This document shows positions 24,163 through 47,665 of a stretch of 64,000 bases of DNA, one piece after another. The notes beneath the pieces were generated by a model, which searched no databases, had not been told where the DNA came from, and saw only the letters and a list, made by a program, of their open reading frames with translations. Made by a program: the position numbers and the translations under genes. Each line of letters starts with the position of its first letter. Within the stretch, counting starts at the first letter, position 1. Source of the DNA: Squalus acanthias (Eukaryota); contig CM059432.1 of NCBI GenBank assembly GCA_030390025.1, positions 55,740,001 through 55,804,000 of the forward strand, read 5' to 3'.

Positions 24163-25133
24163 AAGCAAAATACTGCAGATGCTGGAAATCTGAAATAAAA
24201 ATAGAAAATGCTGGAAATGCTCAGCAGGTCAGGCAGCATCTGTAGAGAGAGAAACAGAGTTAACGTTTCAGGTCTGACGAAAGGTCATCGACCTGAAACA
24301 TTGGCCTGGATTTTGCAGTGGGTAATGATGGCGAACTGTCAGCATTTGATGTCATTACCCCTCTGAAAGTGACCACAACTACAGAATCTAATGCAAGCAA
24401 ATTGAAGCGAGGAAATCTTGAAGTTGCAGTCAGTTATTCACTGCTCCAACACAGGCTACCCCCCGCCCCCCAACCAACACCCCCACCACCCCCCCGCTCC
24501 CACCACATAGCCGGCAATCAGTGTAATCAGTGGAACTGACGAAAACTTGGGCTTTTCTGCGCTAATATCGCTGTTAAATGCCCCATTAAATGTTAAGCCA
24601 TGTTGGAATAGGTGTAACTGGGGTTTTAACAGCGTATTGACTGCTAAACCACTGGCCCTGAAAAACTAATTTTTATATTTTTGGAGTGTCAAATTTCTCC
24701 ATTATGCTAAGAATTACAAGTTTTTAAAAGTTTTTTCATGATATTTCAGCTTTTTTCTTATCCCCATGTGAAAGTCCCAATCTTTATTTTGCTCTCTGTA
24801 ACATTTTTTAAAAGTCCAGATAAAAGCTGCTTTTCATTTCCTGGTTTGCTGTCTGTGAGAATTTTTCAATGTGATTGGATGCTTACGTCCACCCGACCTC
24901 ACTGCAGCTTTTCGATGGGAATTCCCATTACGGAGCGCTACAATCAAATGCACGTTGAGAAAGGCAAACTTCTCACCACAGAAATCGCGAGATCTCTGTG
25001 GGCAGCTTTCTTCAAGGCCAACGGCGAGCGCCTTTGCTTCGCCACTGACTGCAAATTACAGGCCGTTAATTCTGTTTCTCTCTCCACAGATGCTGCCTGA
25101 CCTGCTGTGTATTTCCAGCATTTTCTGTTTTTA
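24163..25133. mobile_element. Head-to-head Penelope pseudo-LTR pair with 14-bp TSD
   Basis: Minus copy 24163-24273, plus copy 24274-24302 + 25065-25133. TSD TCCTAAATGTACAT (24149-24162) / TCCTAAATTTACAT (25134-25147). Confidence 0.85.
24303..25064. mobile_element. Harbinger-type MITE (GGCC TIR) inserted in the pLTR hammerhead
   Basis: TIR GGCCTGGATTTTGCAGT / ACTGCAAATTACAGGCC (15/17); flanks ATT (24300-24302) and GTT (25065-25067). Confidence 0.88.
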
Positions 25134-25499
25134 TCCTAAATTTACATTATGTGCCCATTTGCAGATGGCACATGAGAGAAATGGAGGAATAAACAGGGCA
25201 TGGAACGACTTTATCCACCCGACCTCATTGCCATAAATCCTTTAGTGACAAAAGTAGTCTCCCCCTTTCCTCCTCTCCAACCCTTTCACAAATAGCCAGC
25301 GGTATCTCAAAGGACATGAGCGCCCAGACTAGGCCTATCCATCCGTCAGAGAAGCACATGGCCATGAATATAAAGCTCCAAGTCTGAGGTACAAGGAAAA
25401 TCGTGATAAGGCCTTCAGCTATTTTGTTAACTCAGACTAAAGACATTGAAGGAGAGAATCACACAGGATGCCGATTATTACAGCCTTGCCCGCAGGCTC

Positions 25500-25960
25500 A
25501 GGGACTGAAAAGTCTCTTTCTTTCCATCACCTCCACCCCCCCCACCCCCAGGCCACGTGGCGCACGCGCACTCTCTCCATTAACAGCGCTCTTTTCAAAT
25601 GCGCGAGCGACTTCTAACCGACACAGGGCAGCTCCGCACAAGGGGAAAGAAAAGGGCTGAAAGACAGGTTCGCACTACCTGAGCCCACCTAACGTCAGAC
25701 TAACTCATGGCCTTCCCCACCCCCAACTCCGGTTTTAATCCCCCGGAAGAGAAGTTATAAATTCCACTATTTTACTTAATAGTTAAAAGCGTTGAGTGAG
25801 TGGTTTATGAACGTGGAAGCGATTAGCGCTGGATCAAAAAAAAATTACCGAGTTAAATAGTGCTGTAAAAGTCAGTGATACGAAAAGGGACTTGTCTAAG
25901 CGTTCAATTGGTGTCCAACAGTAAGAACCTGAATTCACTGCGCACGCACAGTCTTTGTAT
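25500..25960 (-). promoter_or_regulatory. CpG-retaining promoter-like segment inside the hAT element
   Basis: NRF1-like GCGCACGCGC (~25559) and TGCGCACGCA (~25939), E-box CACGTG (~25554), possible minus-strand donor CAG|GTAGTG near 25678. Function and strand are inferred. Confidence 0.35.
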
Positions 25961-26004
25961 AGCTGAGACTATTCCAGTCATCACAATATACAGGGGAGAC
26001 GACT

Positions 26005-28017
26005 GACTACATTCCCACTACGGGGAAAGGCAGGGCAACTAAAATCAGGGCTCCCTGGATGACAAAACAGATAGAGAATATGATGAAGCAGAAAAAGGGC
26101 GCGTATGACAAATGTCAGGTTGCAAATACATCTGAGAATCAGGCTATATATAGAAAGGTCAGAGGAGAAGTGAAAAAGAAAATAAGAGGGGCGAAGAGAG
26201 GGTATGAGAATAGAATGGCAGCTAACATAAAAGATAATCCAAAAGTCTTCTATAGGCATATAAATAGTAAAAGGGTAGTAAGAGGAGGGGTGGGGCAAAT
26301 TAGGGACCAAAAAGGAGACCTATGCATGGAGGCAGAGGGTATGGCTGAGATACTAAATGAGTACTTTGCATTTGTCTTCACCAAGGAAGAGGATGCTGCC
26401 ATAGACATAGTGAAGGAGGAGGTAGTGGAGACACTTGATAGGATAAAAATTGATAAAGAGGTATTAGAAAGGCTGGCTGTACTTAAAGTTGATAAGTCAC
26501 CAGGAACGGATGGGATGCATCCTGGGATGCTGAGGGAATTGAGGGCGGAAATCGTGGAGGTACTGGTCATAATATTCCAATCCTCCATAGATATGGGGGT
26601 GGTGCCAGAGGACTGGAGAATTGCAAATGTTACACCCTTGTTCAAAAAAGGGTGTAAAGATAAACCCAGCAACTACAGGCCAGTCAGTTTAACCTCGGTA
26701 GTGGGGAAGCTTTTAGAAACAGTAATCAGGGACAAAATTAACAGTCACTTGGATAGGTGTGGATTAATTAAGGAAAGCCAGCACGGATTTGTTAAAGGCA
26801 AATCGTGTTTAACCAACTTGATCGAGTTTTTTGAGAGGTAACAGAGAGGGTTGATGAGGGTAATGCGGTTGACGTAGAGTACATGGATTTCCAAAAGGCG
26901 TTCGACAAATTGCCACATAATAGGCATGCCAGCAAAGTTGAAGCCCATGGAATAAAAAGGACAGTGACAGCATGGATACAAAATTGACTAAGTGACAGGA
27001 AACAGAGAGTAGTGGTGAACGGTTGTTTTTCGGACTGGAGGAAGGTATACAGTGGTGTTCCCCAGGGGTCAGTTATAGGACCACTGCTTTTCTTGATATA
27101 TATTAATGACTTGGACGTGGGTGTACAGGGCACAATTTCAAAATTTGCAGATGACACAAAACTTGGAAGTATAGTGAAAAGTGAGGAAGATAGTGATAGA
27201 CTTCAAGAGGACATAGACAGACTGGTGAAATGGGCGGACACGTGGCAGATGAAATTTAACGCAGAGAAGTGTGAAATTATACATTTTGGTAGAAAGAATG
27301 GGGAAAGGACATATAAACTAATGGTACAATCCTAAAGAGGGTGCACGAACAGAGAGACCTAGGGGTATGTGTGCACAAATCGTTGAAGGTGGCAGGGCAG
27401 GTTGAGAAAGCAGATTAAAAAGGCTTACGGGAACCTGGGCTTCATAAATAGAGGTATAAAGTACAAAAGTGTGGAAATTATGACAAACCTGTATAAAACA
27501 CTGGTTCGGCCCCAACTGGAGTACTGTGTCCAATTCTGGGCACCACACTTTAGGAAGGATGTGAGGACCTTAGAGAAGGTGCAGAAAAGATTTATGAGAA
27601 TGATTCCAGGAATGAGGGACTTCAGTTACGTTGATAGACTGGAGAAGCTTGGGTTGTTCTCCTTGGAGCAGAGAAGATTGAGAGGAGATTTGATAGAGGG
27701 GTTCAAAATCATGAGGGGTCTGGAAAGTGTAGATAGAGAGAAATTGTTCCCATTGGCAGAAGGGTCGAGAACCAGAGGACACAGATTTAAGGTGATTGGC
27801 AAAAGAACCAAAGGCGACGTAAGAATGCACTTCCTGAAAGGGTGGTGGAGGCAGACTCAAGCTTATCTTTCAAAAGGGAGTTGGATAAGTATCTGAAGGA
27901 AAAAAATTTGCAGGGCTACGGGGAAAGGGCAGGGGAGTGGGACTAGCTGAGAGTCGGCACGGGCTCGACGGGCCGAATGGCCTTCTTCCATGCTGTAACC
28001 ATTCTATGATTCTATGA
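26005..28017 (+). mobile_element. CR1 LINE, 5'-truncated, with 3' tail
   Basis: ORFs 26059-26841, 27012-27335 and 27402-27896 are frameshifted parts of ORF2; (TTCTATGA)n tail. Confidence 0.95.
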
Positions 28018-28224
28018 TGTTTATGCCATAAACATCAGTAGTCTTCCCTGTATATTGATGGGACAAACCAACTGGCGGATCCCCTGAAATCTTCTCACAG
28101 ACCCCAAGGGGGCCACAGATCCCCGGTTGAGAACCTCTGATCTAGATGACTTCCTAAAATAGTCTAGATGGTAATATGGATATTCTCACCACTCCAAACA
28201 GAGTATAATACAATCAACAAAATT

Positions 28225-29132
28225 CATATCTACACTGATGACATCCAACTCCACCTCATCACCAGAAACACTGCCTCTAAGTGTGCTGCTGTACTATCTG
28301 AACACCTGTCCAACATCATGTCCTGCACAAATAGAGATTTCCTACAGCTTATAATTGGCAAAACTGAAACCATCCTGTTTGGCTAACACCAGCACCTACA
28401 TCAACCTCCCCAGCTGCTTCTTCAGGCTGAGCCTGATAGTGCACAATCTCAACATTCTTTGTTGCAGTGAGGTGAGGTTTCTTTCCCACATTCAGTCCAT
28501 TGCCAAGACTGACATCTTTCTCCTCAAACACTGCCCATGCATGCCCTTATCTGAGCCCACTTTGTTGCTGAAATCCTTATTCATGTCTTCATCATCTTGA
28601 GGATGGAGATCCCTAATGATCTGCTCAGCAGAAACTCCACCTCCACTCTTCACAAATTCCAGTTGATCCAGAACTTTGCAACCTGTGTCCTATTCCCCCA
28701 CAAATTTACACATATCCATCATGTCCACCCGTACCCATCTTCACTGGCTTCCTGTGCACCAACAAATTGACTTCAAAATCCTCATCCTCATTTACAAATC
28801 TTTCCACAGTTGAACTGCACCCTATTTGGCAAACCTTCTCCAGCCTACATTCCATCCCACACCCTCTGACTCCAGATTACTGCTTATTCTCCAGTTCCTC
28901 CACTCCACTTTCAGCCATTATGCCCTTGCATTCTAGGCTCTCTTCCAAAACCACTTTGCCATACCATCTCTCTCCCTGCCATCAAAAGCCTCCTAAAAAA
29001 CTTTTTTTTCCATGCCTTGTTTTCCCCTAAATTTATTTAATTCCTTTTCAGCATCCACTTATCCCCGCCCTGTAAATTGTTCTGAGAGATTCTTTTATAT
29101 GAGTATTATAAATCTAAGTTGATGATGTTGTT
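28225..29132 (+). mobile_element. Old L2 LINE 3' part
   Basis: YTDDIQL...FLQL.IGKTE remnant, LHWLPV..DFKILIL, degenerate tail. Confidence 0.75.
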
Positions 29133-29134
29133 GC

Positions 29135-29580
29135 TTCACCATTAAGGTCTCAACTCTGAATAAGTCTGCTTAACTGTCAGGCTGTCAAGTACAAATTGTC
29201 TTGTGCTAAGTGACAAACCCAACTGTCTTTCATTCAAGCTGGTTCTATGGACATTGTCAATCCACCAGTATCTATCCCAAGTGATCATTCTTTAGGTGTT
29301 GGTCTAGGAAGTGAGTGTTATTGGGCTATTCATCATGGGTAGCATCACATTTCAGCACAAACTGTCTTTACCAGACATCCACAGACATGCAGTTCCTGGC
29401 AAGAGCCATTAGAGAGCAATCAAGAGCAAGAAACCTAGCTATTTTTTTCTTCCCAACTCCAGGGATGATAAGGCTAATTCTAGTGCCCCAGCTGAGATAA
29501 TCTGACTCAACACACATGAGGGCTAAAAATGTTCTGCTCTGTAAGGTTCAGTATCAGACCATGTTAGCTTACTCACTAGA
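29135..29580 (-). mobile_element. Old SINE-like repeat (other pieces at ~5830-6010 and ~20590-20740)
   Basis: Mutual similarity among the three loci (CCCAAGTG..CATTCTT; GAGGCCAATT..CAGCTGAG..CTAACTCAGCACA); family not identified. Confidence 0.45.
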
Positions 29581-31740
29581 GGAACTCTTGTCTCAAATTA
29601 GATGGTCAGGAATAGCTCCCCCTGATGGCTCAGTCCTTTGTTTACATACTGAACCATCGGGGAAGTTATTCCTGACTATCTAATATGAGACAAGAGGTCC
29701 TCCAGCAAGCTAACATGATCAGATTAGTGTTGCATTACCCAAAGAAATCTATTCTTTGACTGGTGGGTCAGAACCATTCTTTCTTTGACCAATGGGTTAA
29801 GTGACCTGAATGAGTATCATTTCCCTTATCTAGATTTTGCATGAGTCATCAACTAAGGAGGGTACTGTAAGGCAAGAAAATTGGAGGAGAAAATAAATGT
29901 ACATTTGTAACAATCTGATAAAAGAGATTTATTTATATTTCCATTTATGTACCAAGGCGAAAAAGGCCATCAGGGCCATATATGCTCACCCATCACCCCC
30001 ATTCATTGGGCAATTCCATCTCTATGCACCAACCATCCCTCCCCACCGCACCTCCTGAGTGAGGTAAAAACATAGACCTGTAGCTAATTTGAGTCTTCAG
30101 GCAAAAACTCCTCTTCAACCCACCTTGCTTTCCAGAAATTCATCGAAGGACTGGCAGGACTCAGTCTCCACTACCCGCTTCCGTATCCTGTTCCACAAGT
30201 CAATCACCCTGAGAAAAGTAAAACTTCTAGACATCCAACCTCAGCCCCGCTTCCTCAGTTTGTAACTTTTCCCCCTAATTCTAAGTGACCCCATCACTCT
30301 ATTTTCATATGATGTCCATACCCATAGTAATCTTAAATACCTGAATCAAATCACTTCTGACTCTCCAACAAGCATAAACTCATGGCATTTATTCCAATAC
30401 TCTGAAAGTTAATTAAACTTACTTAAATAACTTCTACAAGCTTACTCAAATGTATTTTTGATCAAACATAACTGTTATGTAAGAATTCAAATAGGTAATC
30501 CCTAAATTTACCTCAAACTATCCGCAAAGTGTTAACTCTCTTATTCCCTTTACAAAGTATCATGGTCAGTCAACCCCATCACCCACTAAGAGGCTGCTCA
30601 GTGTCAGCTAAGAAATTTCATTAACAAAGGTTAACTCCACAAAATGACAGGTCTTCCATACACTGCCAAGAACTATTTTTTACTCATAACATAATACTAA
30701 ACAAAATGTTACAATTTCTTTGATGTAATAGAAAAATGGATACCTGGAAGCAATTACAAAGCAGCAATCTAATCAAGTAGTACAGACAACATAATAAACC
30801 ACTCAAGTAAAGGTTGAGTGGTTTATAGTCATCATCTGAACCTCAGGATTTAGATTGCAGCTTTGAATTCTCCTCTTGGTATTTTCTGTTTCGGTTTTAT
30901 GTGCGAATTTTACTTTATTTCTGTGCCAGTAATTGCCAGTCAACTTTATTTCCTTAATCCATGATGTTTACAAAAGGGATAAACACCTAATACATCAGCA
31001 CTGCAGTTTATCAAGAAATTGTCCACACATACCAGGAAATGTATATTTTAGTAGAAAATTAAAGTTTGAGCAATCTCAATAGCGAACACATGATTACTGA
31101 AATGTTCATGCCACTTTAAAAAAATTGAATGGAAAATAGTAATCATGTAACCATTCTGTTTGTGTTGCTTTCTAATAATTACATTGGCTGCTGCTAAGCA
31201 CCTGACCTGTCTGATGGTTCTGTGTTTGACCAAGAAGTAAAATGATAATCCAAGAAAGGGAGGAACCACCTAGAGGTGAAGAAGGCCAATTTGTACTTGA
31301 GAGTGAGAGAATAATGGAAAAGTTTAATAAGTATTTTGCCTCAGTTTTATTTTTTACAGAGCAAGAGGATGATGTGGAAGAACTATGAGAGATAAATATT
31401 CAAAAAGATTTAAAAAGTTAATGGGACTAAAAATAGAAATGTCACTAGATCCATATGGTATGCATCTCAGAATACTGAAGTAGGTTGGGAAGGAGATAGC
31501 GGAGGCACTAGCTAACATTGGAAATGGGAATTACGCCTAAAGGACTGGAGGGTGGCAAATGTTACACTCTTCTTCAAGAGGGAAACTGATAAGCTAGGAA
31601 ATTATAGGCTAGCTACAAAATTATGGGCCAGTTAGACTTATCTTGGTTATGGGTAAACTTCTAGGCTCCATAATACGGGATAAAATTAGTGAATACTGGG
31701 GAAAGCATCGGCTAATCAAGGATAGTCAGCAGCGATTTGT

Positions 31741-32002
31741 GCATCCCCCAATTCCTGTGCCATGCCTTCAGCCATCTAGTCCCTAAACTTTGGAATTCCC
31801 TCCCAAACCTCTTTGCCTCTCCACCTCTCACTCCTCCTTTAAGATGCTGGTTAAAACCTACCTCTTTGACCAAGCGTTTGTTCACCTGTCGTAATGTCTC
31901 CTTCTTTGTCTCAATGTCAGTTTTTTGTCTGATTATGCATCTGTGAAGCACTTTGGGACATTTTACTACATTAAAGGCACTATATAAATGCAACTTGTTG
32001 TT
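31741..32002 (+). mobile_element. L2 3'-end fragment inserted in the old CR1, 7-bp TSD
   Basis: Ends TATATAAATGCAACTTGTTGTT; TSD GATTTGT at 31734-31740 and 32003-32009. Confidence 0.85.
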
Positions 32003-32340
32003 GATTTGTAAAGGATAGTCCATGCTTGACTAATTTAACTGATTTACAGTGGATGTTGTATGACTGGATTTTCAGAAAGTGTTTTATTAGGTGCCATATA
32101 AGAGAAGAGTGAAGCACAGTATTAAAGGAAAGCTACATATGGATCGAGGAATGGCTGAGGGATACAAAGCAAAGAGTAAAAGTAAATGGATGGTTTTTGG
32201 GTTGGTGGAATGTGGGTGGTGGTGTGGCCCAGCAACATGTGCTGGGACCTCCTTTGTTTTCCATATATTTAAATGATTTGGACATAGGCACAAGAGGAGT
32301 GGTACTAAAGCTTGCTCATGATACCAAATTAGGGAGCATG

Positions 32341-32489
32341 GCAAACTGAGGAACAATGCATGAGATTGCAAGAGAGCAAACTTTGAAGAACAATACATGA
32401 GATTGCAAGAGAGAAAACTGAGGAATTAATGCATGAGATTGCAAGAGGGCAAATAGTGAGGAACAATGCATAAGGTTGCAAGAGGGCAG
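32341..32489 (+). repeat. ~35-bp x4 minisatellite derived from CR1 sequence
   Basis: Unit GCAAACTGAGGAACAATGCATGAGATTGCAAGAGA repeated four times with variation. Confidence 0.85.
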
Positions 32490-33529
32490 AGAAATGTGAA
32501 GTAGTGCATTTTATACAGTAGAAACAGTATGAATAAGTAACATTCTTAATAGAGTGGAAGATCAGAGATATTTAGGGATGCAGATACAGAGATCTTTAAA
32601 AGTGGGAGTAAAGGTAGAAATGGTCGCAAAGGGTTTTATACATAGGGATATTGCACACAAAAGCAACATGGTGCTGTTGAATTTATACAAGACATTGGTT
32701 AGGCTATAGTTGGTCTATTGCATACAGTTCTGGGCACCCCATTATAGAAGGATATTGGAGCCATGAAAAGAGTACAGCAAAGATTCATTAAAATTATAAC
32801 AGGAATAAAAGGTTAAAGTTATGAAGAAAGGTTAAAAAAATTGATTTATTTTCTACTGGAACAGAAATGGTTAAAGGAGGATCTAATAGCGGTTTACCAA
32901 AATTAGTAAAGATTTTGAGAGATAAATAGTGAAAGAGTTGGCAAACTGAAAACAAGAGGACATAGACTCAAGATTATCACGAGAAGAACAAAGGAAGAAG
33001 TTAGAAGTACTTTTTTCACACAGAGGGTATTAGAACATGGAATGCTGTGCCACAAGTGGCTACTGAAGCACAGGATATAGCATTTAAAAGGGATTTGGAT
33101 AAGTATTTGAATAGGGAGAATATAAAAAGATATGGAGAAAGGGCAGGGAAATGGAATTAGAGTAGTCACTCCAGTTGAAGAACTAGAACAAAGTTGGGGT
33201 TGGCCAAATGTCTCTTCCTGTGTTGTAATTTCAATGAGTCAATATTTTTATGATTCAACATTCAAAGTAATTAAATCTCTGAAAATTTGGTGTATAAATT
33301 AAATTATACCGAATAACAAAAATTTCAAAGGTAGATGGTGGAAATGGACTTTAGAAAGTAAAGTAAAACTAGAGTATATTCCAAGGTCTTTCTCACAGTG
33401 AGTAGGGGTATATGCTGGTTTGAAACAGGCATGTACAAAGTACAAATAGAAAGTCTCAGTGATGTCAGCATTCATCAAACAGTCAATATGATATGCTGGC
33501 AGACTTCACAGACACACATTCACAATAGA

Positions 33530-33980
33530 AAAAAGACTTGCATTTATATAGCGCCTTTCACACCACCGGACGTCTCAAAGCACTTTACAACCAATGAAGT
33601 ACTTTTTGGAATGTAGTCACTGTTGTAATGTGAGAAACGCAGCAGCCAATTTGTGCACAGCAAGCTCCCACAAACAGCAATGTGATAATGTGCAACCAGA
33701 TAATCTGTTTTTGTTCTGTTGATTGAGGGTAAGTACTGGCCAGGACACTGGGGATAGCTCCCATGCTCATCTTCGAAATAGTGCCATGGGACCTTTTACG
33801 TCCACCTGAGAGAGCAGACGGGGCCTCGGTTTAATGTCTCATCCAAAAGACAGCACCTCCGACAGTGCAGCACTCCCTCAGCACTGCACTGGAGTGCCAG
33901 CCTAGATTTATGTGCACCTCTTACCCACAACCTTCTGACTCAGAGGCGAGTGTGTAACCCACCGAGCCACAGCTGACACT
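33530..33980 (-). mobile_element. SacSINE1-like SINE, near full length
   Basis: Reverse complement of 8514-9112 including the tRNA head. Confidence 0.88.
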
Positions 33981-33981
33981 A

Positions 33982-34062
33982 TAGGTAGGTAGGTAGGTCG
34001 ATAGCTAGATAGCTAGATGAATGGATAGATGGATGGATAGCTAGATAGATAGAGCGATAGAG
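33982..34062. repeat. Compound (TAGG)n/(GATA)n microsatellite
   Basis: Direct reading. Confidence 0.85.
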
Positions 34063-34084
34063 TCAATAACATAGGCACATAATG

Positions 34085-34335
34085 TGGGGTGATGCTCAGG
34101 AAATGTTGCATTGTCAGCAGTGCTGTCTTTCAGATGAGATGTTAAACTGAGGCCTCGTCTGCCTGTTCAGGTGTACATAAAAAAATCCCATGGTACTACT
34201 CAAAGAAGAACAGGGAAGTTCTCCTGGCCAACATTTATCCCTGACCTAACAACACTAAGGCAGATTAACTGGTTATTTTCTTAAGTGCTGTTTGTGGGAC
34301 ATTGTTGTGTGCAAATTGGCCACTGTGTTGGCCTA
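34085..34335 (+). mobile_element. SacSINE1-like internal fragment
   Basis: GATGAGATGTTAAACTGAGGCC...TCCCATGG...GCAAATTGGC. Confidence 0.75.
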
Positions 34336-36104
34336 GAGGTTATCTTTGCAAGTGTATTCTCTATCTGTGTTACAAAGACTGAAATTAAGACTAAAGCTCA
34401 ATTTTGTATTACAACTGGAATATATTATCGAAATGTTTCTTTAATGTACGTAAGATAAATCAATGTAAAACAATTTGGATGTTAGCTGACTTACTCAGTT
34501 TTCTTTGTTTATGGCAAATGCATGTGGCTTCTACATGAAACACTGAGGTATCCTTATAAAGAAAGAGTAATCTTGCTGTATCACAGCTGTTTCTCACCAA
34601 TATTATCTCACTGCCCCAAAGCCTAGTTGCAGAGTGCCGTAGGGAAAAGCAACAAACGGAATAGGATTATTGTCCAATGAGAGTGTCTTTTACAGGGCAG
34701 TCAACCGAGAGAGGAGTTACACAGTCTCCTTCACAAATTTCCAATGACAGATGTCTAAAACATTCTCAAATTACCACTAATTCTTCAATCTTCCACAACT
34801 TCTATAACACTCATGCCACCCAAAAACCATGCTCAAGACCTTGAGCTCATTGATGAATTCTGCAGGGATTATTAGGTTCAAAACAGCACATCTTTCTGCC
34901 TCTCAGAAATGAAAGCTTTAATCAGACCTAGAATTTTGACATTTCAGATGAAAAATATATTTGGTTTTCAGGATTCTTTGACTTGACAGTTACCATTCAC
35001 AGATGCTGGTGAACATAGAATTAGAAACTACTGCTAATGAATTTGCATTCAAATATTTATAAGGCTCAATCTTAGTGGGAGCAACATTTATCTCTCCAAA
35101 AAAAAATTCACAAAGTAAACTTTACTTAAGTTCAGAACAATTATCTTTCAGGCATTCCTTAATCTCAAACTATAGTTAATAAACCCAGGTAACCACAACC
35201 TGTATATTGTTAAAAATGCAAACGTTTAAGGTCTCATGTTGTTATAATTGGACAAGAAAGCATTGTCCATAACATTGAATGGAAAGACAATTAATTGTGA
35301 TAACATCAGAATACTGCAACTTTTAAAATTTGCACATTCTGTTTTATAACATCCAAAGAAGAGTTCTGTTCATTTCTAATACTCTACGTTGTGATGCAGC
35401 ATTAAGGAAGCGTACAGAACCACAACATCTATCTGAAATTGTAGTATTGTTCAACTGTTCAAAAATTTGTAATCACTTTTTAAAATTGATGATTTCGAGT
35501 AAGATTGCTATGGCTATGGCCCAGACAGTTATGTTGAGTGATTCTGAGCTAAGATTAAAAGCTACATTTACACTACAGTCCCTACAAAATCAGAGTTTGC
35601 ATCAGGGTCATCCTAACTGAACACTAACTCTCAACATTTAGACTTACAGCTGGCCCCAATTAAGTTAATGTATTAAATTACCAAGCTCATCCAAACCCTG
35701 ATTTTTTTTTACAGAAGAGATTCACATTAAAGGTGTTTAAATCAGCCTAAAGCAAATCTCTCACTTTGCTGAGATCTATCGGTCTTTTTGCTCCGAACTA
35801 TATTATGTCCATTGTAACACCGCACTTTTACATATACAACATTGACGACAGATCAGTTTCAAACTTGCAAAATGTGAATTGACAGCTGAAACGTAAAGTT
35901 GGCTTTATTATTCTCATTGCCCATGATATGCGAACACAAGTAAATTTGAAAACAGTCAGAGATGCTGAGGATGTTACTATCGTATAATGATGAAGGAAAG
36001 GTTTTTCATAATATATTTATTTTTGCATTATCTTTATCTAGATAATTTATAAAATAAACTAGTTTAGCTAGAGACCCAAATAATAACCCATGTAATCCCA
36101 ATAA

Positions 36105-37050
36105 GGTCCCACTCACCCATCACCCCTGTCCTCACTGACTTACATTTGCTCCAGGTCTCCAAATGCTTCCAATTTAAAAATGTTATCCTCATGTTTAAAT
36201 CCTTTCATGGCCTCAACCCTCCCTATCTCTGTAACTTCTTCCAGCCCTACAACCTCCCCCCAAGTACTCTACATTCCTCCGCCTCTTGTGCATCTCCCCA
36301 TCGCCCCACCATTGGTGGTGTGCTTTCAGCCATCTAGGCCCTACGCTCTGAAATTCCCTCCCTAAATCTCTCTACTTCATTCTCCTCCTTTAATACCCTC
36401 CTTAAAACAACAACAATTGGCATTTATATCACGCCTTTAACATAGTAAAATGTCCCAAGCTGCTTCATTGGAGCATTTATCAAACAAAATTTGGCACTGA
36501 GCCACATAAGGAGATAGTAGGAAAGTTTGGTCAAAGAGGTAGGTTTTAAGGAGCATCTTAAAGGAGCAGAGATAGCTAGAGAGGCAGAGAGGTTTAGGGA
36601 GGGAATTCCAGAGCTTAGGGCCTAGGCAGCTGAAGGCACAGCCACCAATGGTGCAGCGATAAAAATTGGAGATGCGCAAGAGGCAAGAGTTGGAGGAGCG
36701 CAGTAATCTCAGAGGGTTGTAGGGCTGGAGAAAGTTAGAGATAGGCCATGGACGGATTTGAAATTAAGGATGAGAATTTTAAAATCGAGGCAGTGCCAGA
36801 CATTGAGTCAATGTAGGTCAGCGAGCACACAGGTGAGGGGTGAATGGGACTTGGTGCAAGTTAAGATACAGGCAGCAGTGTTTTGGAGGAGCTCATGTTT
36901 ATGGAGCCAACTCAACCCAACTCTTTGACCAACTTTTAGTTACCCTTACTAATATCGCCTTCTTTGGCTCCATTTTTGTCAGATCATGCTTTTGTGAAGC
37001 ACCTTGGGACATTTTTACATTAACAGTGCTATATAAATGCAAGTTGTTGA
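36105..37050. mobile_element. L2 3' fragment (+) interrupted by an inverted L2 3' fragment (-, ~36406-36905)
   Basis: Plus L2 breaks at CTCCTTAAAAC and resumes at CCCAACTCTTTGACC; the insert starts with the (AAC)n tail. Confidence 0.8.
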
Positions 37051-37255
37051 GAAACTAACGTATTATTATAACATATATTATCAAAGGTTTAAATGGGGAA
37101 TAGCTGAAAATGTGCAGCTTTAGGAGCGTGATTCTTCAAACATTCATGATAAGCAACAAAAGTTTCCAATATCATAGGACAGGAATCCTTAATCTACTAG
37201 ACCAATTTGCGCCTAATTAATTACTAGGACATTACAGCTTGTTTTAAATTAGAAC

Positions 37256-37387
37256 AAAAGCAAAATACAATGGATGCTGGAAATTTGAAATAAAAACAGA
37301 AAATGCTGGAAATATTCAGCAGGTCAGGCAGCATCTGTGGAGAAAGAAACTGAGTTAACTTTCAGGTCGATGACCTTTCGTCAGAAA
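37256..37387 (-). mobile_element. Solo Penelope pseudo-LTR
   Basis: Same family as 8965-9095; hammerhead helix III has a 1-nt deletion. Confidence 0.85.
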
Positions 37388-37629
37388 TTAATGGCTGATT
37401 ATGTGAATCGCACAGCAGCATTGACAATAGCTGCAAACAGCAGTGTTGGGACATAAAGCTTCACCTTTGGAATATGTGTAGCAGTAAGTAGGAAAGGTGG
37501 TATTTGGTACAGTGCAAACCAAACCATCCAGCAAGTATGCTGAAAGTTAAATGAATGATTTGCACTGCAATAGAGCAATATTTCAGAAATTAGAATTCAT
37601 TTCATTGTCACTATTCAATGTATTGTATG

Positions 37630-37980
37630 GGAACTGTAGCATAGTGGTTATGTTACTGGACTACTAATCCAGTAGGCCTGTAATGATCCGGAGATATAAG
37701 TTAAAATCCGACCACGGCAGCTGGGGAATTTAAATTCAGTAATTAAACAAATCTGGAATTAAAAAGCTAGTATCAGTAATGGTAAACATGAAACTACCGG
37801 ATTGTTGTAAAACCCATCTGGTTCACTAATGTCCTTTAAGGAAGGAAATCTGCCACTCTTACCTGGCCTGGCCTATATGTGACTCCAGACCCACAGAAAT
37901 GTGGTTGACTCTTCTTAACTGCCCTCTGAAATGGCCCAGCAAGCCACTCAGTTTAGGGATGGGCAATAAATGCTGGCCGA
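37630..37980 (+). mobile_element. tRNA-derived shark SINE (third family)
   Basis: A box TAGCATAGTGG; tail TAGGGATGGGCAATAAATGCTGGCC also seen in degenerate form in the LINE end at ~42560-42690. Confidence 0.7.
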
Positions 37981-38099
37981 AGAATTTGCTGTTGTAAGAA
38001 AATGTGGAAAAGGGAATAAGCCTCACGGAACATCTGCTCTAAGAATTATTAAAATTACTGAAGGACCGATGTAACTAAAGAGGAATTCCATTTAAAGCT

Positions 38100-39041
38100 G
38101 ATCTTCAATAAACATTTCTCCACGGAACTCGAAAATTGGCTTGGAAGTACATCATTTGGTCAAATGCATTAAAATAGAAGGAAATATTTCGTTAACAACG
38201 GTCGGATGGCTCACATCTGCCAGACTAACTTGTCAAACTAATCACGCGTGAAATTAAATGACGAAAATATTACAGAATTATTCACATAATTCAATAGGAA
38301 ACGCTATGATTTTTCTAAAAGTAGCCAAGGTTACCCTAGTTCACCTCATTTTCGTTCACGATTTATAAAGGAAGGCGCGCTCATCATTCACGTTTTAAGA
38401 TTTCCATCGTAAATTCTGCGGGATGAACATCGGCGATCGAAACTGCTGTGAAGTCAGCAAAAGCAAAATCCAACAGACCTTCCACAATATCAGAAAGTTA
38501 ACGCCGGGGAGCAGTTTTTCGGCTCCTTAGTCATTCACTTAGTTCACTTGGGATATCTTCCCCATTTGGGTAGGGGAAGAGTTATTTTTGCCCTTTCCTC
38601 TGTTGCTCAAAAACATTGCTGGCGCTCAACAGAGTGGGAATCAACATAAACCAGAACCACACAAGGTCAACAGGGGATATCCAAACGGGGAGGGACTAAA
38701 AGCTGATGTCTGCATGTGTGATTGTATATATAAAGCGTTGGCTCGCCTGTTCAAAATTAGATTACAGTGAAGAGTTGCTTCCGTTTTCCTAGGACATCAC
38801 GGCCCGGTTCAAGACCGATGTGCGATGCCTGCCCGAAACTTCCCCCCACCGGAGGTATCGACTGCTTTTTGTTCGCCAGCCTTGAGTGGGGATTAGCTGC
38901 TCAGTATGTATGCGAACAGAGTCGAGACTCAGCTCTCGCCGTGGCGTCCCTGCTTCTCAACCCCGACCTCACAAGTGTGTGAAAGTGAGCTCGGGAGAAT
39001 GGCATGAAGGCAGCTTCATCCGATCTGTCATTCACCTTCCC

Positions 39042-39072
<31 letters not shown>

Positions 39073-41000
39073 CCCCTTTCCCTTTCTCCTTTTGCTCCTC
39101 CTTCCTTTGTCATCCGCTTCCTTTCTTTCGCTTTCTCCCCCCTGCTCCCCAACTCTTCGATCTACCCACCTTGACAAGGTGCTACTGTAATGTCGCCGTC
39201 TTTTGCAACATACATCACGCCACTACTAATTATTAAGTGAAGTTCCACTCTGCAAAAAATAACCCACCAACAAACCACAGCCCAGCACGAAATCTAAAGA
39301 GCCCTAAAAGGTTATTTTTGGTTTACAATTACGACCATTTTTATGGTAATGTAACAGTGCGGGGTTTCCAGCGAGAGCAACAATGTAGGTCTGACAGGAC
39401 AAAAAATATTTTTGGATTTATTCAAATGCATTACCAACCATCCTCAATCTTATTTTGATTGGGACGCAATAAAGAGCGACACATCCACGTACCTTTATTT
39501 CCCAGCACATCATCATCGACCCAGAAATATCACTAGATTCAAATAGTAGTTACGATTACGACCGACATGAAGATATACTTACTGAAAAGGCATGTTTTTA
39601 AATGTTAATTTTCCAGCTCAGTTCTTGTGTTATTACTGCATTTCTGTTTAGCTATTAAATGTCGCTATGATAAAATGATCCTGCGAACAATAGATACCCC
39701 AATTACTCGAATAAAACCTCAACAATTTTTCAATCACTACAGATTTTATTTGTCTTAATTTCGAGACCTATGATATTCGAATCTTTATATTGGTCGAAAT
39801 GCAACATCAGTTCTTTCGAGCTGTGAATGCGCAATTTTCAATTTAAATTTACTCAAAATCGAGTGGAAACAGAGGAAAAGTCCAAATATACTCAATTTAA
39901 AAAGTACTTCCAGATTCTAAACATGTATGTTTACTCAAAACATGATTCAGTTTTTAAAACATGTTACATCGAAAATAAAACGGTTGGCAAAGCAACCGAA
40001 AATAAGTGCAGATTTACCATCTTCTAGTTTGAATTGTAATAACCAAAGATGAAAAATAAACTGGTCCATACTCAAATAAAGACAGCAAATTTCACGTCGT
40101 GATATAAATCACCATTTTATTCTGGCCACAAGAGAAACACAAGTCCCTCCACATTCAAAGCTTCTTTTACTGTAACCCTGGATTCTACCCAAGATCTAAG
40201 CACAAAGAAATTGGAGGAAAAATGACATCGACCGCTCTCTATACAAATGTAGCGAGCGACACCACTCGCATCGAGCACGATCAAAAGCACGGTGTCGCAT
40301 CGCCTGCCTGCATCTTATTTTTCCTTCGGGCATGTGGCGTTCAACGGCATCAAACTGAAAACAGTGGCGAAACCATATTTACCAACTTACATTTTCCTTT
40401 CAGATGAATGTATGCACTTTCTTTTCCCTACGATTGGTGCCCGATGATGACTCAATTATCCGCTGAATTTGCCGACTTTACTGCAACATTGGTTTTGGAT
40501 TATGTGCCCCGTGTATGTGTTTTGCGATTGGGATTGTACGCCGCTCTCCGCCAGCTCAGGGTCTTGGACAGACGGTCAGACCCACACCAGGGAGCGGAGC
40601 ATTGTGACACAACCTGGGCTCTGCGCTGCACCATCCATCACACCGAGGGGGAAATACAGGGACAAACTCTGATAGCTTAGTTGTGTTAAACTAACACCCG
40701 CATTCAATATTATTTACTGAGTTCATTAGAGTATTATTCTGTTATAATTCAAAGAAAAACAGAGTATGGAAGTCAATGGCTAAAGTTATGTAACAAAACA
40801 AGCAAGTGTTCTCCTCTGTAAGAGTGGTTTGGCCTGATAGGGTTACGGTTAGTTACGTCAAAACTACACCAGAGAAGCCAGAGTTCGGAGGTGCAGCTCC
40901 ACGGTGAGCCCAAAGAGGGTATCGGCAACTTGAAGGGCAACAGACCGTGCTAAATATACGTACACACATTTGCTTTCGTATTGGTAAACTCCATGCCAAA
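38100..41000. promoter_or_regulatory. TE-free, CpG-retaining block (candidate promoter/enhancer or ncRNA locus)
   Basis: Many CpGs relative to flanking unique DNA, no recognisable repeat over ~3 kb, TATATATAAA at ~38725, (CT)n tract ~39035-39150. Confidence 0.45.
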
Positions 41001-41344
41001 AAAAACATTTTGAAGTAAACTAAATTCTACGGACATTTTTCAGCCTTCAATAAAAGACAACGAAATACTGTGCAGGATATGTTTTTTTTAATGAATCCCT
41101 CTCATCTGTGAAGCAGAAGAAGGCTGGCAAGTAAACTTTTCGCAGGTCTCTACCAATGTCACTCTCCAACTAGTCACTAGGAGGCACAAAAAAAAGTAGA
41201 CTTTGCTCTCATTTTCTTTCCTTCACTGGGGCAATGTTTTCCATTTGTTCATCGCCTCTGCATCTGGCAGGCTATTGTGGCTCCATTAAGCTTAGGTAAA
41301 GGAAGACATGCAAATATAGCCAGATCCATTCAGCTTCCACCCCC

Positions 41345-41990
41345 ATATCCTCTCCATCACAAAGACTGCCTACTTCCATCTCCATAACATCACCTGCCTC
41401 TGCTCATATCAGTCTGCTTATATCATACTGCTCAAGCTTTTATGCATGCTTTTGTCACTTCCAGACTTGACTATTCCAATGCTCTACTGGTTGACCTCTA
41501 CAACCTCCGCCCTCTGTAAATGTCAGCTGCCTAAATCCTATCCCCCACCAAGTCCTACTCACCCTCACCCCTCTCCTCACTGAACTACATTGACTCCTGG
41601 TTCCCCAACAGCTCAAATTTAAAATCATCATCCTCGTGTTTAAATCTCTCCATGGCCTAGCCCCTTCCTATCTCTGGAACCTTCTCCAGTCCTACAAACC
41701 CTCCTTCAAGCTTTCCATTTCTCTGATTCTGTGCATCTCTCTCCCTTTGCCCGACCATTGGTGGCCATGCCTTCAGCAGCCTAGGTGCCAATCTTAAGGA
41801 ATCTTCTCCCGAAACCTCTCCATCTTTCTCTTATCCTTTAAGACCCTCCTTAAAACCCACCTCTTTGATCAAGCTTTTGGGCGCTCCTGCTAATATCTCT
41901 ATGGTTTGACATTTTTTTTAATCAGGCCTCTGTGAAGCACCTTTTTCTGTGCTAAAGGTGCTATATAAATGAGAGTTGTTTTTGTTGTTT
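41345..41990 (+). mobile_element. L2 LINE 3' part
   Basis: HAFVTSRLDYSNALL remnant and L2 tail. Confidence 0.85.
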
Positions 41991-42302
41991 AACGTATTAT
42001 AACCTGCTCCTTTGAACTCTGGAACCTTAGTTTCAAGTCCAGCCCACAAACGAATGAAAGTCTCCTCACTCTGCCAACTGTAAGGATCCTACACAAAATG
42101 AGCTTGGATAGAGAGAAAATCAGGTAGCTTAAAACATGTCCACGTATTTTTCCATCAGCTCAAGATGTAAGAGACAGAGAGCCACAATAGACCATAAAAT
42201 TCAGAATGAGAAAAGGCAATTCAGTCCATCAAACCTACTCTGTCCAGACTATTATTATTCTGTATAGACTTCTGTCCCACACCACCTGTTTTCCCCCTAC
42301 TA

Positions 42303-42388
42303 CAATCTTAAGGAATCTTCTCCCGAAACCCCTCCATCTTTCTCTTATCCTTTAAGACCCTCCTTAAAACCCACCTCTTTGATCAAGC
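42303..42388 (+). repeat. 86-bp local duplicate of 41789-41874
   Basis: 85/86 identical by eye. Confidence 0.9.
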
Positions 42389-42934
42389 AAATTTGCTTCA
42401 CTGACCTCTGGAAAAAAAATCAAGTAGTGAAATTAAATACCCTGTAATGTTACATCCCTCATGCATGGAATTGTCCTGGTCACTTGTCTCTTAATCCTCT
42501 TCAATGCATCTATATTCTTTTTCAGGTAGGGTAACCAAAACTACCGCATACCTCCCTAACACCACTGTGAGAGCACCATCACTACAAAGACTGCACTGGT
42601 TCAAGGGGAAGGCCCATTACCAGACTCTCCAGGCAAGTAGAGATGAGCGATAAATGCGTCCTTGCCAGCATTGCCCACATTCTGAGAATTAGTTTTTCTC
42701 AACTTCTAAAACCATGCTGAGTGCTCCCTACATTACTGTGTGTTTTAAAAGCTTATTTATAGAATACTGTCGAATGTCTTCAAACATTTTTCCAACTTTG
42801 GATATTAGGCTAACTGGCCTGTAATTATCATATTGGTTACTCCTTTGTTGAATAAACTGGAACTACATTTTCCTCCTCTATTCCTTGAGTACTCCCCACC
42901 ATTTATGAAGCTCTGATAAGTATCAACCAACACA

Positions 42935-45255
42935 TCATTTCAATCTCTATCTCAACTCAACTTGCCCTTCTTCCTCTGATTTTACAGCCCTCCTTAACCT
43001 CTCCCTCCATACAAACTCTCCTACCCATATTCATGGCCACCCCCTCGACCTTGCCATCTTGCATGGCCTCTCTGCACTGATCGGCTCATTCACAGACAAG
43101 GCCATCTGGGATCGCTTCCTTGTATACCTCATCACTCACAACCCCTTAGCTCGTTCCAACCCCACCTCCTCTGCGCCGCCCCTGGAAACAACGCTCCAAT
43201 AAGTAACTTACAACTGCACTTTCAAACTCCCAACTCCTCTTTGGCCCTCCATTCGCCACAATACTTCTGCAGCTGTCGATCTGCTCAATCACTACCTCAC
43301 TTCCACCTTTGATGTGCTTGTCTCCAATAAAACCCTTACTCACTCCCACCCTAGTTGTTCCCCCTGGTATGGCTCCCATCTTCGCTCCCTCAAGTCAAAA
43401 AAGGTGCAGACTTGAACGTATTTGGTGCACAACTAGTTTAGATCACATCAAACACTCTCGGGCCTTACTGCCCTCTGCCAAAACAGTTCACTACTCCAGC
43501 ATCATCCTGGAATGCAAAGAAAACCCCTGGCTTCTTTTCTTCACTATCAACCATCTCTTAAATCCCTCTCTGCCCTCACCCCCAAAAACATGTGCAAGGA
43601 GCTCATGGACTTCTTTGTCACTAATGTCAAGACAATCCGTTCAACTTCCTCTGCCACATCCCTCCCTTCCCCTTGCCCACCAAGCCAAACTTCCCCAAAA
43701 CTCCCCTGCCCTAGCCCTGAACCTGCATCTTTCTCTAGCTTTTCTCCGATCTCTCCTTATGACTTCTCCAAGCACATCTAGTCCATGAGACAAGCTTCCT
43801 GCTCTCTCGACCCCATTCCCACGAAACAGCTGACCACTTCCCTTCTTGGCTCAATTGCTACCTGACATTGTAAATGGTTCCCTCTCATCAGGTACTGTCC
43901 CCTCCCTTTCAAAACTGCCGTCAACACCTCCTCCTCAAAAAACCCACCCTTAACCCCTCTGTCCTTGCAAACTATCGCCCTATCTCCAACCTCCCTTTCC
44001 TCTCCAAAGTCCTTGATCATGTTGTTGCCTTACAAGTCCTTACCCATCTTTCCCACAACTCTGTTTGAAACTCTACAATCATGTTTCTGTCCCTGCCACA
44101 GCACTGAAATGGCCTTGATCAAAGTCACAAATGACATCTTCTGTGGCAGTGACCATGGTTCACTATCCGTCTCAACTTCAACTTAACATTAATTTAACAT
44201 CGTTGACCACACCACTCTCCTCTCATCTATTCACTTGTAGCCAGAGCATCTCCAGCAATGTCTTCTTTTTCCGCCTCCACACTGTTATCTCTGGAGTATC
44301 CCAAGGATCTATCCTTGGCCCCCTCCTATTCTTCATCTACATGCTTCCCTTTAATGACATTATCTGAAGACACGGCATCAGGTTTTTCATGTAGACCGAT
44401 GACATCCATTTCTACCTCTCTTCCACCTCACGTGACCCCTCCACTGCCTGTCTGTTGCCAACCTGCTTGTCTGACATCCAGTCCTGAATGAGCTGGAATT
44501 TCCTCCAGCTAAACATTGGGAAGACAGAAGCCATTGTCTTCAGCCCCTGCTACAAACTCTGTACCCTTGCCACCGATTCTGTCCCACTACCCGGCAACTG
44601 TCTCAGGTTGAAGTCGACTGGTCGGAACCTCAGCATCCTATTAGATCCCGAGCTGCGCTTCTGACCCCATAATCCTCTCCATCACCACCTACTTCCATCT
44701 CCATAACATTGCCCATCCTCTGCTGCTGAAAGCCTCATCCATGCCTTTGTCACCTCCAGACTTGACTATTCCAATGCTCTCCTAGTTTGCTTTCCAACCT
44801 CCATAAATTTCAGCTCATAACTTAACCTGTGCTGGTCCGATCACCCATGTGCTTCTGAACTACATGGCTCTCGGTCCCCCAAGCCTCCAATTTAAAATTC
44901 TCGTGCTCATGTGCTAATCCCTTCATGGCCTCGCCCGACCCAGTCTCTATAATCTAAGAACTCTATATTCCTCCAACTCTGGTCTCTTGTGCATCCCCGA
45001 CTTCCTTCACCCCACAATTGGTGAACATGGCCCTAAACTCTCAAATTCCCTCCCTAAACCTATCCACCTCTCTCTCTCTCCTCAATTATAACCTACATAA
45101 AAGCTACCTCTTTGACGACGCTTTTAGTCGCCACTTCTAATATCTCGTTCTTTGGCTCAGTGTCAACTTTTGTTGGAATTAATGACACTTCTGTGAAGCA
45201 CCTTGGGACGCTTTTCTACTTCAAAGGCGCTCTATAAATGCAAGTGTTGTTGTAT
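42935..45255 (+). mobile_element. L2 LINE, decayed ORF2 plus tail
   Basis: LDPIPT, NYRPISNLPFLSKVL, HSTEMALIKVTND, SGVSQGSILGPLLF, HAFVTSRLDYSN; tail TATAAATGCAAG. Confidence 0.92.
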
Positions 45256-45284
45256 CATTAACTTCTTTTTAAGCTTATATCTTT

Positions 45285-46538
45285 TATTGTGTAATGAGAC
45301 AGGGTTTATTAGTAATCTCATAGTAAAGGATCCTCTGGAGAAGAGTGATCATAATATGATAAAATTTCACATTGAGTTTGAGAGTGAAATGCTTCAGTTG
45401 GAAATGAGAGTCTTATAGGTAAATAAAGCCAATTACATAGGTATGAGGGGCGAGTTAGGTAAGGTAGATTTGGAAATTAGATTAAAAGGTATGGTGGTAG
45501 ATAAGCAGTGGCAAACATTTAAAGAAATATTCCAAAATTCTCAACAAATATACATTCCATTGAGAAATAAAAACTCCACGGGAAAAGTGATCCATCTGTG
45601 GCTAACTAAAGAAGTTAAGGATAGTATGAGATTAAAAGAAGAGGCTTATAATATTGCAAAGAATAGCAGTAAGCCTGGGGATTGGGAGAGCTTTAGAAAC
45701 CAGCAAAGGATGACCAAAAAATTGATAAAAAGGGAGAAAATAGAATATGAGAGTAAACTAGTAAGAAATATAAAAACAGATTGCAAGAGCTTCTACAAGT
45801 ATGTAAAAAGCAAGAGAGTTGCAAAAGTAAGCATTGGTCCCTTAGAGGCTAAGGCAGATGAAATTATAATGGGGAATAAGGAAATGGCAGAGACTTTAAA
45901 CAAATATTTTGTATCAATTCACAGTAGAAGACATAAAAAGCATACCAAAAATAGTGGGGAACCAAGGGGCTAAGGAGAGTGAGGAACTTAAAGTAATTAA
46001 TATCAGTAGAGAAAAAGTACTTGAGAAACTAATGGGACTAAAAGCTGACAAATCCCCTGGACCTGATGGCCTACATCCTAGCATTCTAAAAGAGGTGGCT
46101 GCAGAGATAGTGGATGCATTGGTTGTGATCTTCCAAAATTCCCTAGATTCTAGAACAGTCCCAGCAGATTGGAAGGTAGCAAATGTAACCCCGCTATTCA
46201 AGAAAGGAAGGAGAGAGAAAACAGGGAACTACAGGCCAGTTAACCTGACATCAGTCGTCAGAAAAATGCTGGACTCCATTAAGAAAGTGGTAACAGGGCA
46301 CTTAGAAAATCATAATATGATTAGGCAGAGTCAACATGGTTTTATGAAAGGGAAATCGTGTTTACCAAATTTATTAGAGTTTTTTGAGGATGTAACTAGC
46401 AGGGTAGATAAGGGGGAACCAGTGGACGTAGTATATTTGGATTTCCAATGGCATTCGATAAGGTGCCACATAAAAGGTTGTTACGCAAGATGAGGGCTCA
46501 TGGGGTTGGGGCTAATATATTAGCATGGATAGAGGATA
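45285..46538 (+). mobile_element. CR1 LINE internal fragment (EN end to RT start)
   Basis: ORFs 45443-45973 and 45909-46493 (KSPGPDGLHP, QHGF). Confidence 0.92.
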
Positions 46539-46839
46539 TCCAAAGCCAATACATCCTTCCTGAGGTGTGGTGCCCAGTACTGAACGCAGTACTCCAGACG
46601 GGGTCTAACCAGAGCTCTGTACAGCTGTAACATAACATCCACCCTTTTGTATTCCAGCCCTCTTGAGATAAAGGCCAACATTCCATTAGCCTATTTCATT
46701 ATTTTTTGTACCTGTCCATTAGCTTTCAGTGATTCAAAAGCAAAATACAGTGGATGCTGGAAATCTGAAATAAAAGCAGAAAATGCTGGAAATACTCAGC
46801 AGGTCAGGCAGCATCTGTGGATAGAGAAACAAAGTTAGC

Positions 46840-47604
46840 GGCCCAGAAATTAAACAGTGAGGGTTCCCGCGGGGGTAAAGAATCCCCGCGATATCGCACT
46901 CTGCGCCTACCTTTTTGCTCCGGGCCCACACGAACTTTAGTCTGAAAGGCTCTCTCTCTTGGAACCGTGCAGTGCTTGCGTGACCCAGAGACGCAATTAG
47001 TTCGTGCGAGCTCTGGGATCACGTGATTCAGTTAGAGCCAATGGCAGCACACCATCTTTCATTCATAGTTTTGACAGGAAGACCTGTCAAAGCTATGAAT
47101 ACTATACCCCCCCAAAAGAACAGCTAAACCTCAATTAAATTTTTTTAAAAAGCCATCACATTAATAAAATAAGTATAGTTAAATAAATTAACCACTTTAA
47201 ACAAAAAATTAAATTTTTGAAAAAATTTAAAATCTTTTTAAAAGTTATAAAAATAAACTTACCTTTCTTTAAAGTCTCTAAAAAAGATAAACCTGTTGAA
47301 AAATATTTAAAATAACACTTAATTAACTACTTACCTTGTAAAAAGGGGGTCCTACGCCTGCTTTCTTTATGTGTAAAATGTTCACCACTTACCTGCGCGT
47401 TCAAAGCTGGAAAAAAAGCTAAGTGCACTGTGTGCGCACAGCCTGTAGCGCGCACGCGGTTCACTTAGGAACCGCCCCCTTTTGAATTCACGAAGTGCCG
47501 GTTTCCCGCGCATGCGCAGTGCATGCAGGAAACCGGCAATTGGAGACCTAATACGCGAGAGTACACAGTGCGTACTCTCGCGTATTAGGTCTAATTTTCG
47601 GGCC
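46840..47604. mobile_element. Harbinger-type MITE (GGCC TIR) inserted in the pLTR hammerhead
   Basis: TIR GGCCCAGAAATTA / TAATTTTCGGGCC; flanks AGC (46837-46839) and AAC (47605-47607). Confidence 0.88.
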
Positions 47605-47665
47605 AACATTTCAGGTCGATGACTTTTCATCAGAATTGGGGGACTGAGAGGCAATGTAGAACCCC

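Follow-up and report, generated by a model that had tools for sequence, protein, structure and literature searches.

We identified an insertion hotspot for Harbinger-type DNA transposons in Squalus acanthias, at a single GTT triplet in the pseudo-long terminal repeat (pLTR) of a Penelope-like element, which is represented twice in a 64,000-nucleotide stretch of the genome (GenBank assembly GCA_030390025.1, CM059432.1, positions 55,740,001-55,804,000; hereafter the window). All genome-wide counts given here refer to the 3.71-Gb assembly. Several Harbinger families have very probably inserted independently at this triplet, in about one of every 80 pLTR copies, by way of a palindromic target sequence that they prefer, and not by way of the hammerhead ribozyme that is predicted at the same place.

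A preliminary description of the window had reported two different Harbinger transposable elements of the miniature inverted-repeat kind (MITEs), here termed M1 and M2, at the same pLTR GTT and in inverted pLTR pairs, and the sequence confirms both points. M1 and M2 differ in their terminal inverted repeats (TIRs) and share only short A/T-rich matches in their interiors (best E 0.07), and each host pair is flanked by a 14-bp duplication in which 13 of 14 bases match. Locus 1 reads GACCTGAAAC-ATT[GGCCTGGATTTTGCAG...CTGCAAATTACAGGCC]GTT-AATTC, the element occupying 24303-25064. Locus 2 reads AAGTT-AGC[GGCCCAGAAATTAAAC...GTCTAATTTTCGGGCC]AAC-ATTTCAGGTC on the forward strand, with the element at 46840-47604, and GAAAT-GTT[...]GCT-AACTT on the pLTR strand. 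Two of the three duplicated bases match in each case (ATT/GTT for M1, GTT/GCT for M2), and an original GTT would fit both pairs. Relatives of M1 elsewhere are 66-74% identical to it, and M2 is 91.6% identical to the insert of locus L007, which lies in reverse orientation at the GTT of another pLTR. The two hosts had been placed in a hAT and a CR1 element. For the first, we found an 8-bp duplication and TIRs of a type that we take to be that of hAT; for the second, the surroundings are a fragment of long interspersed nuclear element (LINE) reverse transcriptase, presumably CR1, a name that we assigned from its motifs. The features are arranged as follows.

23991-28139, no strand: hAT-type host element, bounded by the 8-bp duplication ATCTAGAT (23983-23990 and 28140-28147); its 15-bp TIRs are complementary at 14 of 15 positions
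24163-25133, no strand: Penelope-like insertion 1, an inverted pair of pLTR stubs; 14-bp duplication at 24149-24162 and 25134-25147
24163-24273, reverse strand: antisense pLTR stub, ending within helix II, without CTGANGA
24274-24302, forward strand: 5' part of the sense pLTR, with CTGACGA, helix II, GAAA, C and, at 24300-24302, the left duplication copy ATT; helix I is without the AGTT strand that is usual in the pLTR
24303-25064, no strand: Harbinger-type MITE M1, 762 bp, TIR GGCCTG(G/T)A(T/A)TTTGCAGT
25065-25133, forward strand: remaining sense pLTR, starting with the right duplication copy GTT (25065-25067)
46735-47768, no strand: Penelope-like insertion 2, an inverted pLTR pair in the LINE fragment; 14-bp duplication at 46721-46734 and 47769-47782
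46736-46839, reverse strand: 3' part of the interrupted antisense pLTR, with a duplication copy reading GCT on the pLTR strand (46837-46839)
46840-47604, no strand: Harbinger-type MITE M2, of family A (defined below), 765 bp, TIR GGCCCRGAAATT
47605-47641, reverse strand: 5' part of the interrupted pLTR, with CTGATGA (47633-47627), helix II, GAAA, T and the duplication copy GTT (47607-47605)
47664-47768, forward strand: uninterrupted sense pLTR, containing a predicted minimal hammerhead and an empty target GTT at 47696-47698

Searching for the filled junction, GACCTGAAAYRTT-GGC, gave 995 matches in the genome, against 1 for the reversed control, and the empty site occurs in 77,166 exact copies. 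A TIR-like end was found at 29 of 30 fetched filled junctions, and with this scaling applied about 1.2% of the pLTR GTT sites, around 1 in 80, are occupied. Two apparent insertions, L001 here and L305 at the LINE site described below, were rejected as mutated empty sites (1 of 30 and 1 of 10, respectively) and the counts scaled accordingly. For a control ATT elsewhere in this pLTR there were 21 matches, of which eight were inspected and carried neither a TIR nor an element, so that the enrichment of GTT over another RTT site, proposed earlier as a check, is borne out.

Judged from their sequences, the insertions at the pLTR GTT are independent events, since they fall into at least four unrelated clusters, occur in either orientation (for family A, 94 ends in one and 142 in the other), and often have their closest relatives in opposite orientation or outside pLTRs (L174 and L040, 99.6%; L196 and L048, 99.7%). 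The inserts measure from 680 to 7,044 bp, and at 3 of 20 long loci there was no pLTR continuation within 8 kb. Copying of a MITE-bearing pLTR as a unit by the Penelope machinery, which would reduce the many cases to a few events, would account for those family A copies that match another pLTR-borne copy best, but the variety of clusters, lengths, orientations and nearest matches refutes it for most cases, and we regard it as extremely improbable. Nor do the two events in the window derive from one composite element, M1 and M2 being unrelated.

The inserts can be assigned to the PIF/Harbinger superfamily. Imperfect TIRs of about 16 bp bound M1 and M2, and the resolved pLTR inserts likewise carry TIRs. 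The 3-bp duplication is identical on both sides in 45 of the 65 family A elements for which both ends were found (72 examined), and in 40 of 52 family A elements at the pLTR. We scanned 28 frames from 16 long inserts at the pLTR GTT, and found the transposase domain PF13359 DDE_Tnp_4 in five (L061, L062, L069, L071 and L080; E 1e-34 to 4e-6), all with GGC-type TIRs, and PF13873 Myb/SANT in L071 only (E 3e-9), indicating that the GGC-TIR elements belong to PIF/Harbinger. We infer the membership of M1 and M2 from TIR type, duplication and target, the TIRs of the coding inserts being those of other GGC families. L071, a 4,184-bp insert with transposase and Myb/SANT remains and intact ends, is a candidate near-autonomous Harbinger. 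We additionally noted an integrase-core frame nested within one Harbinger insert (L073:4859-5947), and a few family A and B elements flanked by ATT at one end and by AAT at the opposite end (e.g. L041, L053, L056, L058 and L060), seemingly beyond what single mutations would give.

The target preference was derived from sites outside the pLTR. Family A, defined by the end GGCCCRGAAATT, includes M2 and has 17,491 ends under a filter that removes about 22% of sites plus the pLTR junctions; the latter were counted directly, since the flank filter (H at -20) excludes both. Family B, defined by the end GGCYGSRATTTT, has 23,949 ends (control 485). The matrices were built wholly from sites other than the pLTR one, with 137 half-sites for family A and 81 for family B. 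Family A favours A at -7 (92 half-sites), A at -5 (96) and a pyrimidine at -4 (130), with a triplet of the form A-A/T-T, and family B favours A at -9 (43), A or G at -8 (61), A at -7 (62), A or T at -5 (71) and C at -4 (52), with a loose triplet. The resulting flank preference, A-N-A/T-Y-[NNN]-R-A/T-N-T, is mirrored about the triplet, as in a palindromic target. The pLTR sequence TGAAAC[GTT]AACTCT is its best match along the repeat, and GTT ranks first among all positions of the window pLTR with either matrix (30.6 against 5.9 for the next position with A; 108.5 against 28.3 with B), which supports the alternative, raised in the preliminary description, of a long preferred target. The pLTR accounts for about 1% of family A ends (236 of about 22,700); for family B the share is about 1-2% (2 of 100 listed ends), and the inserts of this family there are mostly at GTT, read by eye, in line with supply. 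A flank of TCCCCTTGAAAAC-ATT recurs in 4 of 100 listed AAACRTT rows, always with the same family A subtype (e.g. L259, L263 and L270), and is either another repeat-borne hotspot or a composite element.

Preferences of this kind are known from other members of the superfamily. A 2001 paper by Jiang and Wessler, cited in PMC2836001, reportedly deals with an insertion preference in nested MITEs. As described in PMC2836001, an extended target preference of 9-15 bp is a feature of PIF/Harbinger, and plant PIF, Ping/mPing and Tourist-like MITEs share with the elements studied here a two-protein system, a 3-bp duplication and an extended target preference, although their target is of 9 bp with a TTA-type triplet, and the MITEs studied here are of 720-770 bp and longer. 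The zebrafish element Harbinger3_DR, with the target AAACACCWGGTCTTT according to the account in PMC3016246, similarly duplicates 3 bp at the centre of a palindromic target and uses a transposase and a Myb/SANT protein; its left half-target A-A-A-C-A-C matches the family B majority at -9 to -4 (A, G/A, A, C, A, C). In contrast to the CWG of Harbinger3_DR, the triplet here is A-A/T-T (family A) or loose (family B), and the preference is weaker, spread over many MITE families and productive of hotspots within other abundant repeats. Dada transposons likewise recur at one position of a multicopy RNA-related sequence, but are described in PMC3706591 and PMC8869645 as target-specific for multicopy small-RNA genes; the pLTR is not a specific target of this kind, since about 99% of family A ends lie outside it.

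We identified a stronger hotspot in the open reading frame (ORF) of a CR1-type LINE. The site, TAAACAAATAC-TTT-GT, gave 793 junction matches, of which 9 of 10 inspected were real, and the inserts come from several Harbinger subfamilies in both orientations (L301-L310). Among the first 100 listed junctions, 95 have the C-form. About 680 C-form sites are filled against 3,475 empty, giving an occupancy of about 16%, roughly 13 times that of the pLTR, with an empty count that spans the GTA and GTG forms; GTA alone would give about 30%. The site is a near-perfect target; of the four sites tested it scores best with the family B matrix (5,698x), a value that no random position exceeded. Its T-form, of which the window contains an example at about 45907-45923, accounts for 73 of the first 100 listed empty GTA sites against 5 of the first 100 listed filled ones. 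Thus, the suggestion that the pLTR is a special landing pad is not supported, the CR1-type site being more heavily occupied and nearly all family A ends lying elsewhere. A second CR1-type site, in the region GAGGACAC-AAA-GAGTCTGC, recurs among family B flanks (L275, L276, L282, L290 and further rows).

The host repeat is consistent with the pLTR of an endonuclease-containing (EN+) Penelope-like element, for which 5'-truncated and inverted pLTR arrangements are described in PMC8557442. The copies are 5'-truncated and inverted with duplications of variable length, as in both window hosts and in the stepped upstream homology among copies. The ORF upstream of the pLTR ends with reverse transcriptase motifs and a GIY-YIG region, in which two cysteines lie between the motifs. 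In L103 and its relatives, a 402-residue open frame contains the reverse transcriptase motifs and LVYCIRCSRCGLL(Y)IGET, as expected of an EN+ element, whose C-terminal GIY-YIG bears a CCHH motif, and a protein atlas places the frame in HTH_animal, GIY-YIG and RVT_1 clusters (0.94-0.97); comparison with Pfam and the PDB gave no significant match.

A minimal hammerhead is predicted in the pLTR, with the GTT as its N-U-H triplet, and the earlier claim to this effect holds as a prediction from motif, helices and context. The pLTR has the layout AGTT-CTGAYGA-A-[RGGTC-loop-GACCT]-GAAA-C-GTT-AACT. Across 46 empty copies, collected by a motif search that itself demanded the CUGANGA and GAAA cores, the helix II pairs are largely conserved and the loop is variable, and helix I (AGTT/AACT) is present in 29. 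Searches with the Rfam hammerhead models gave no match within the window up to E 5, the minimal forms being without helix III. The predicted ribozyme resembles the minimal hammerheads described by Cervera and de la Pena in 2014 (PMC4209133) in its CUGANGA and GAAA cores, 4-bp helix I, absence of loop 3, single unpaired base before helix II and palindromic 15.2-16.2, and in copies that are mostly single or on opposite strands. It differs in its GUU triplet, 5-bp helix II and cleavage that is predicted only, and in pair 10.1-11.1, which is A-T in 26 of 44 copies and G-T in 18 (A-U or G-U in the RNA), the usual G-C pair being absent, whereas the G10.1-C11.1 pair is reported as highly conserved in that account (PMC4209133).

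An insertion puts GGC after GTT in place of AACT, and would break or weaken helix I. The preliminary description had proposed that the ribozyme is repeatedly knocked out in this way. Such knock-out probably matters little, most filled hosts (65 of 82) being solo pLTR stubs and family A lying mostly in copies whose helix III palindrome had mutated beforehand. The pLTR of host 1 lacks the 5' strand of helix I before M1 is considered, and position 15.2 is T in that of host 2. Reversion of the damage is also conceivable, since Harbinger excision is described as usually precise (PMC2836001). The hotspot data give no sign of an interplay with the ribozyme.

Several points weigh against target preference as the full explanation. 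With base rates set, over both strands, at about 22,700 ends for family A and about 30,000 for family B, family A uses ACATT at about 2,300x where its matrix predicts 892x, and ACGTT at about 160x where 36x is predicted. Family B uses the pLTR at about 640x when 6 of 30 loci are the basis and at about 1,500x when 2 of 100 rows are, where about 395x is predicted. A 2- to 5-fold excess at the pLTR is therefore unexplained by the matrices; it agrees with AAACRTT half-sites read by eye, in which 32 of 100 flanks are pLTR, and G occurs in 12 of these 32 against 1 of the 68 others. Both matrices draw on the first 25 Mb of a single contig, later mutation has blurred them, and CR1-type sites themselves make up 7 of the 81 flanks used for family B. 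The occupancy counts take elements starting with GGC and leave out those starting with GGG. The share of ACATT among empty sites, 11 of the first 100 listed, stems from 100 sites in one subtelomeric region, and a random sample gave 1 of 8. The excess is not particular to the pLTR, since the CR1-type site shows a similar one (about 27,000x against 5,698x predicted), which points to blurred and position-independent matrices, and not to a feature of the pLTR.

The preliminary description had attributed the hotspot to the palindromes AACGTT and GTTAAC, or to a cruciform of the inverted pair, as attractants of the transposase. Both window hosts are indeed inverted pairs, and family A uses the G-form 4-5 times more than its matrix predicts. 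Pairs are not enriched, however, among filled sites: 17 of 82 filled sites have a partner pLTR within 700 bp, compared with 18 of 58 empty ones (Fisher p 0.17), and 14 of 82 have one within 150 bp, compared with 11 of 58 (p 0.82); a smaller comparison gave 5 of 29 filled and 8 of 30 empty. ACATT, the CpG-decayed form, lacks both palindromes, and yet family A uses it about 14-fold more per site (about 0.7% against 0.05% for ACGTT, from 25 resolved left-junction loci, 16 of A and 9 of G origin). In a sample of 60 family A loci at the pLTR, of which 8 were unresolved and in which one element was counted twice, the 52 resolved include 26 ATT/ATT, 14 GTT/GTT and 4 mixed ATT/GTT pairs. The few mixed pairs indicate that double decay accounts for fewer than one of the 26 ATT/ATT cases, so that those sites were ACATT before insertion. 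Both the palindrome and the cruciform are thus largely refuted as causes, and there is next to no likelihood that they explain the hotspot.

Another reading keeps sequence preference as the main cause and adds a contribution of methylated CpG: family A proteins would read 5-methylcytosine as thymine in the triplet, such that the 5-methylcytosine opposite ACGTT stands for the T of AAT, methylated ACGTT becomes a target, and G in the triplet is accepted chiefly where it belongs to a CpG. In favour of this, the G-form of the pLTR exceeds its matrix 4-5 times against 2-3 times for the A-form. Among 90 G-first family A ends listed from outside the pLTR, of about 420, 81 were resolved (9 unresolved), and 30 of these have G in both duplication copies, 6 following C, 22 T and 2 G; the 6 of 28 that follow C, where the base before G is C or T, compare with 8% expected from word frequencies (one-sided p 0.024). 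However, 22 of the 30 true G duplications follow T, the sample is small and the test one of several, and family B takes G without such a rule, and we consider a role of methylation unlikely. Still less probable, in our view, is that the insertions at GUU were kept by selection, as silencers of a self-cleaving RNA or of an active Penelope copy. Insertion does part the triplet from the 3' strand of helix I, and some filled pLTRs end long Penelope ORF remains (L155, L158, L166 and L170), but occupancy is low and is explained by sequence within 2-5x, family A lies mostly in cores that are already mutated, the far more occupied CR1-type site is no ribozyme, and minimal hammerheads are reported to show no in vitro cleavage as monomers (PMC4209133).

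The window contains two further features of note. An old relative of M1, 66% identical and recognisable at one end only, lies at 6193-6651. A second Penelope-like family is present at 4577-4705, which forms a near-perfect fold-back, and at 49670-49772, with ORF remains at about 48700-49600 and a hammerhead motif of its own, CTGA(C/T)GA...GGAGCAGCGCTCC-GAAA-GCTT.

Under the preferred explanation, a direct reading of the target sequence, the element-encoded transposase and Myb/SANT protein would recognise the target as in other PIF/Harbinger elements, and the GAAAC of the hammerhead, preceding the triplet, would serve as the left half of the Harbinger target. The overlap with the GUU cleavage triplet is most likely a coincidence, arising because this GAAAC supplies the left half-target. 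Insertion would remove the 3' strand of helix I, probably mostly in copies already unable to retrotranspose.

We found no report of this pLTR hotspot in a literature search whose scope excluded most subscription journals and Repbase notes. It is a new instance of a preference for extended targets already known from PIF/Harbinger, here exerted on an abundant repeat, and provides a clean and countable case of a transposon target preference creating hotspots inside other repeats. The resemblance to the zebrafish flank preference suggests that recognition of the flanks is ancient and conserved and that the central triplet is the variable part. Near-identical targets varying at one base (ACGTT/ACATT and ATACTTT/ATATTTT) number in the tens of thousands and constitute a natural experiment on base preference. 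If 5-methylcytosine were indeed read as thymine, this would be a methylation-dependent widening of the target range of a DNA transposon into silenced repeats. Finally, the CR1-type site, with about one site in six occupied, illustrates how far repeat-borne hotspots can go.

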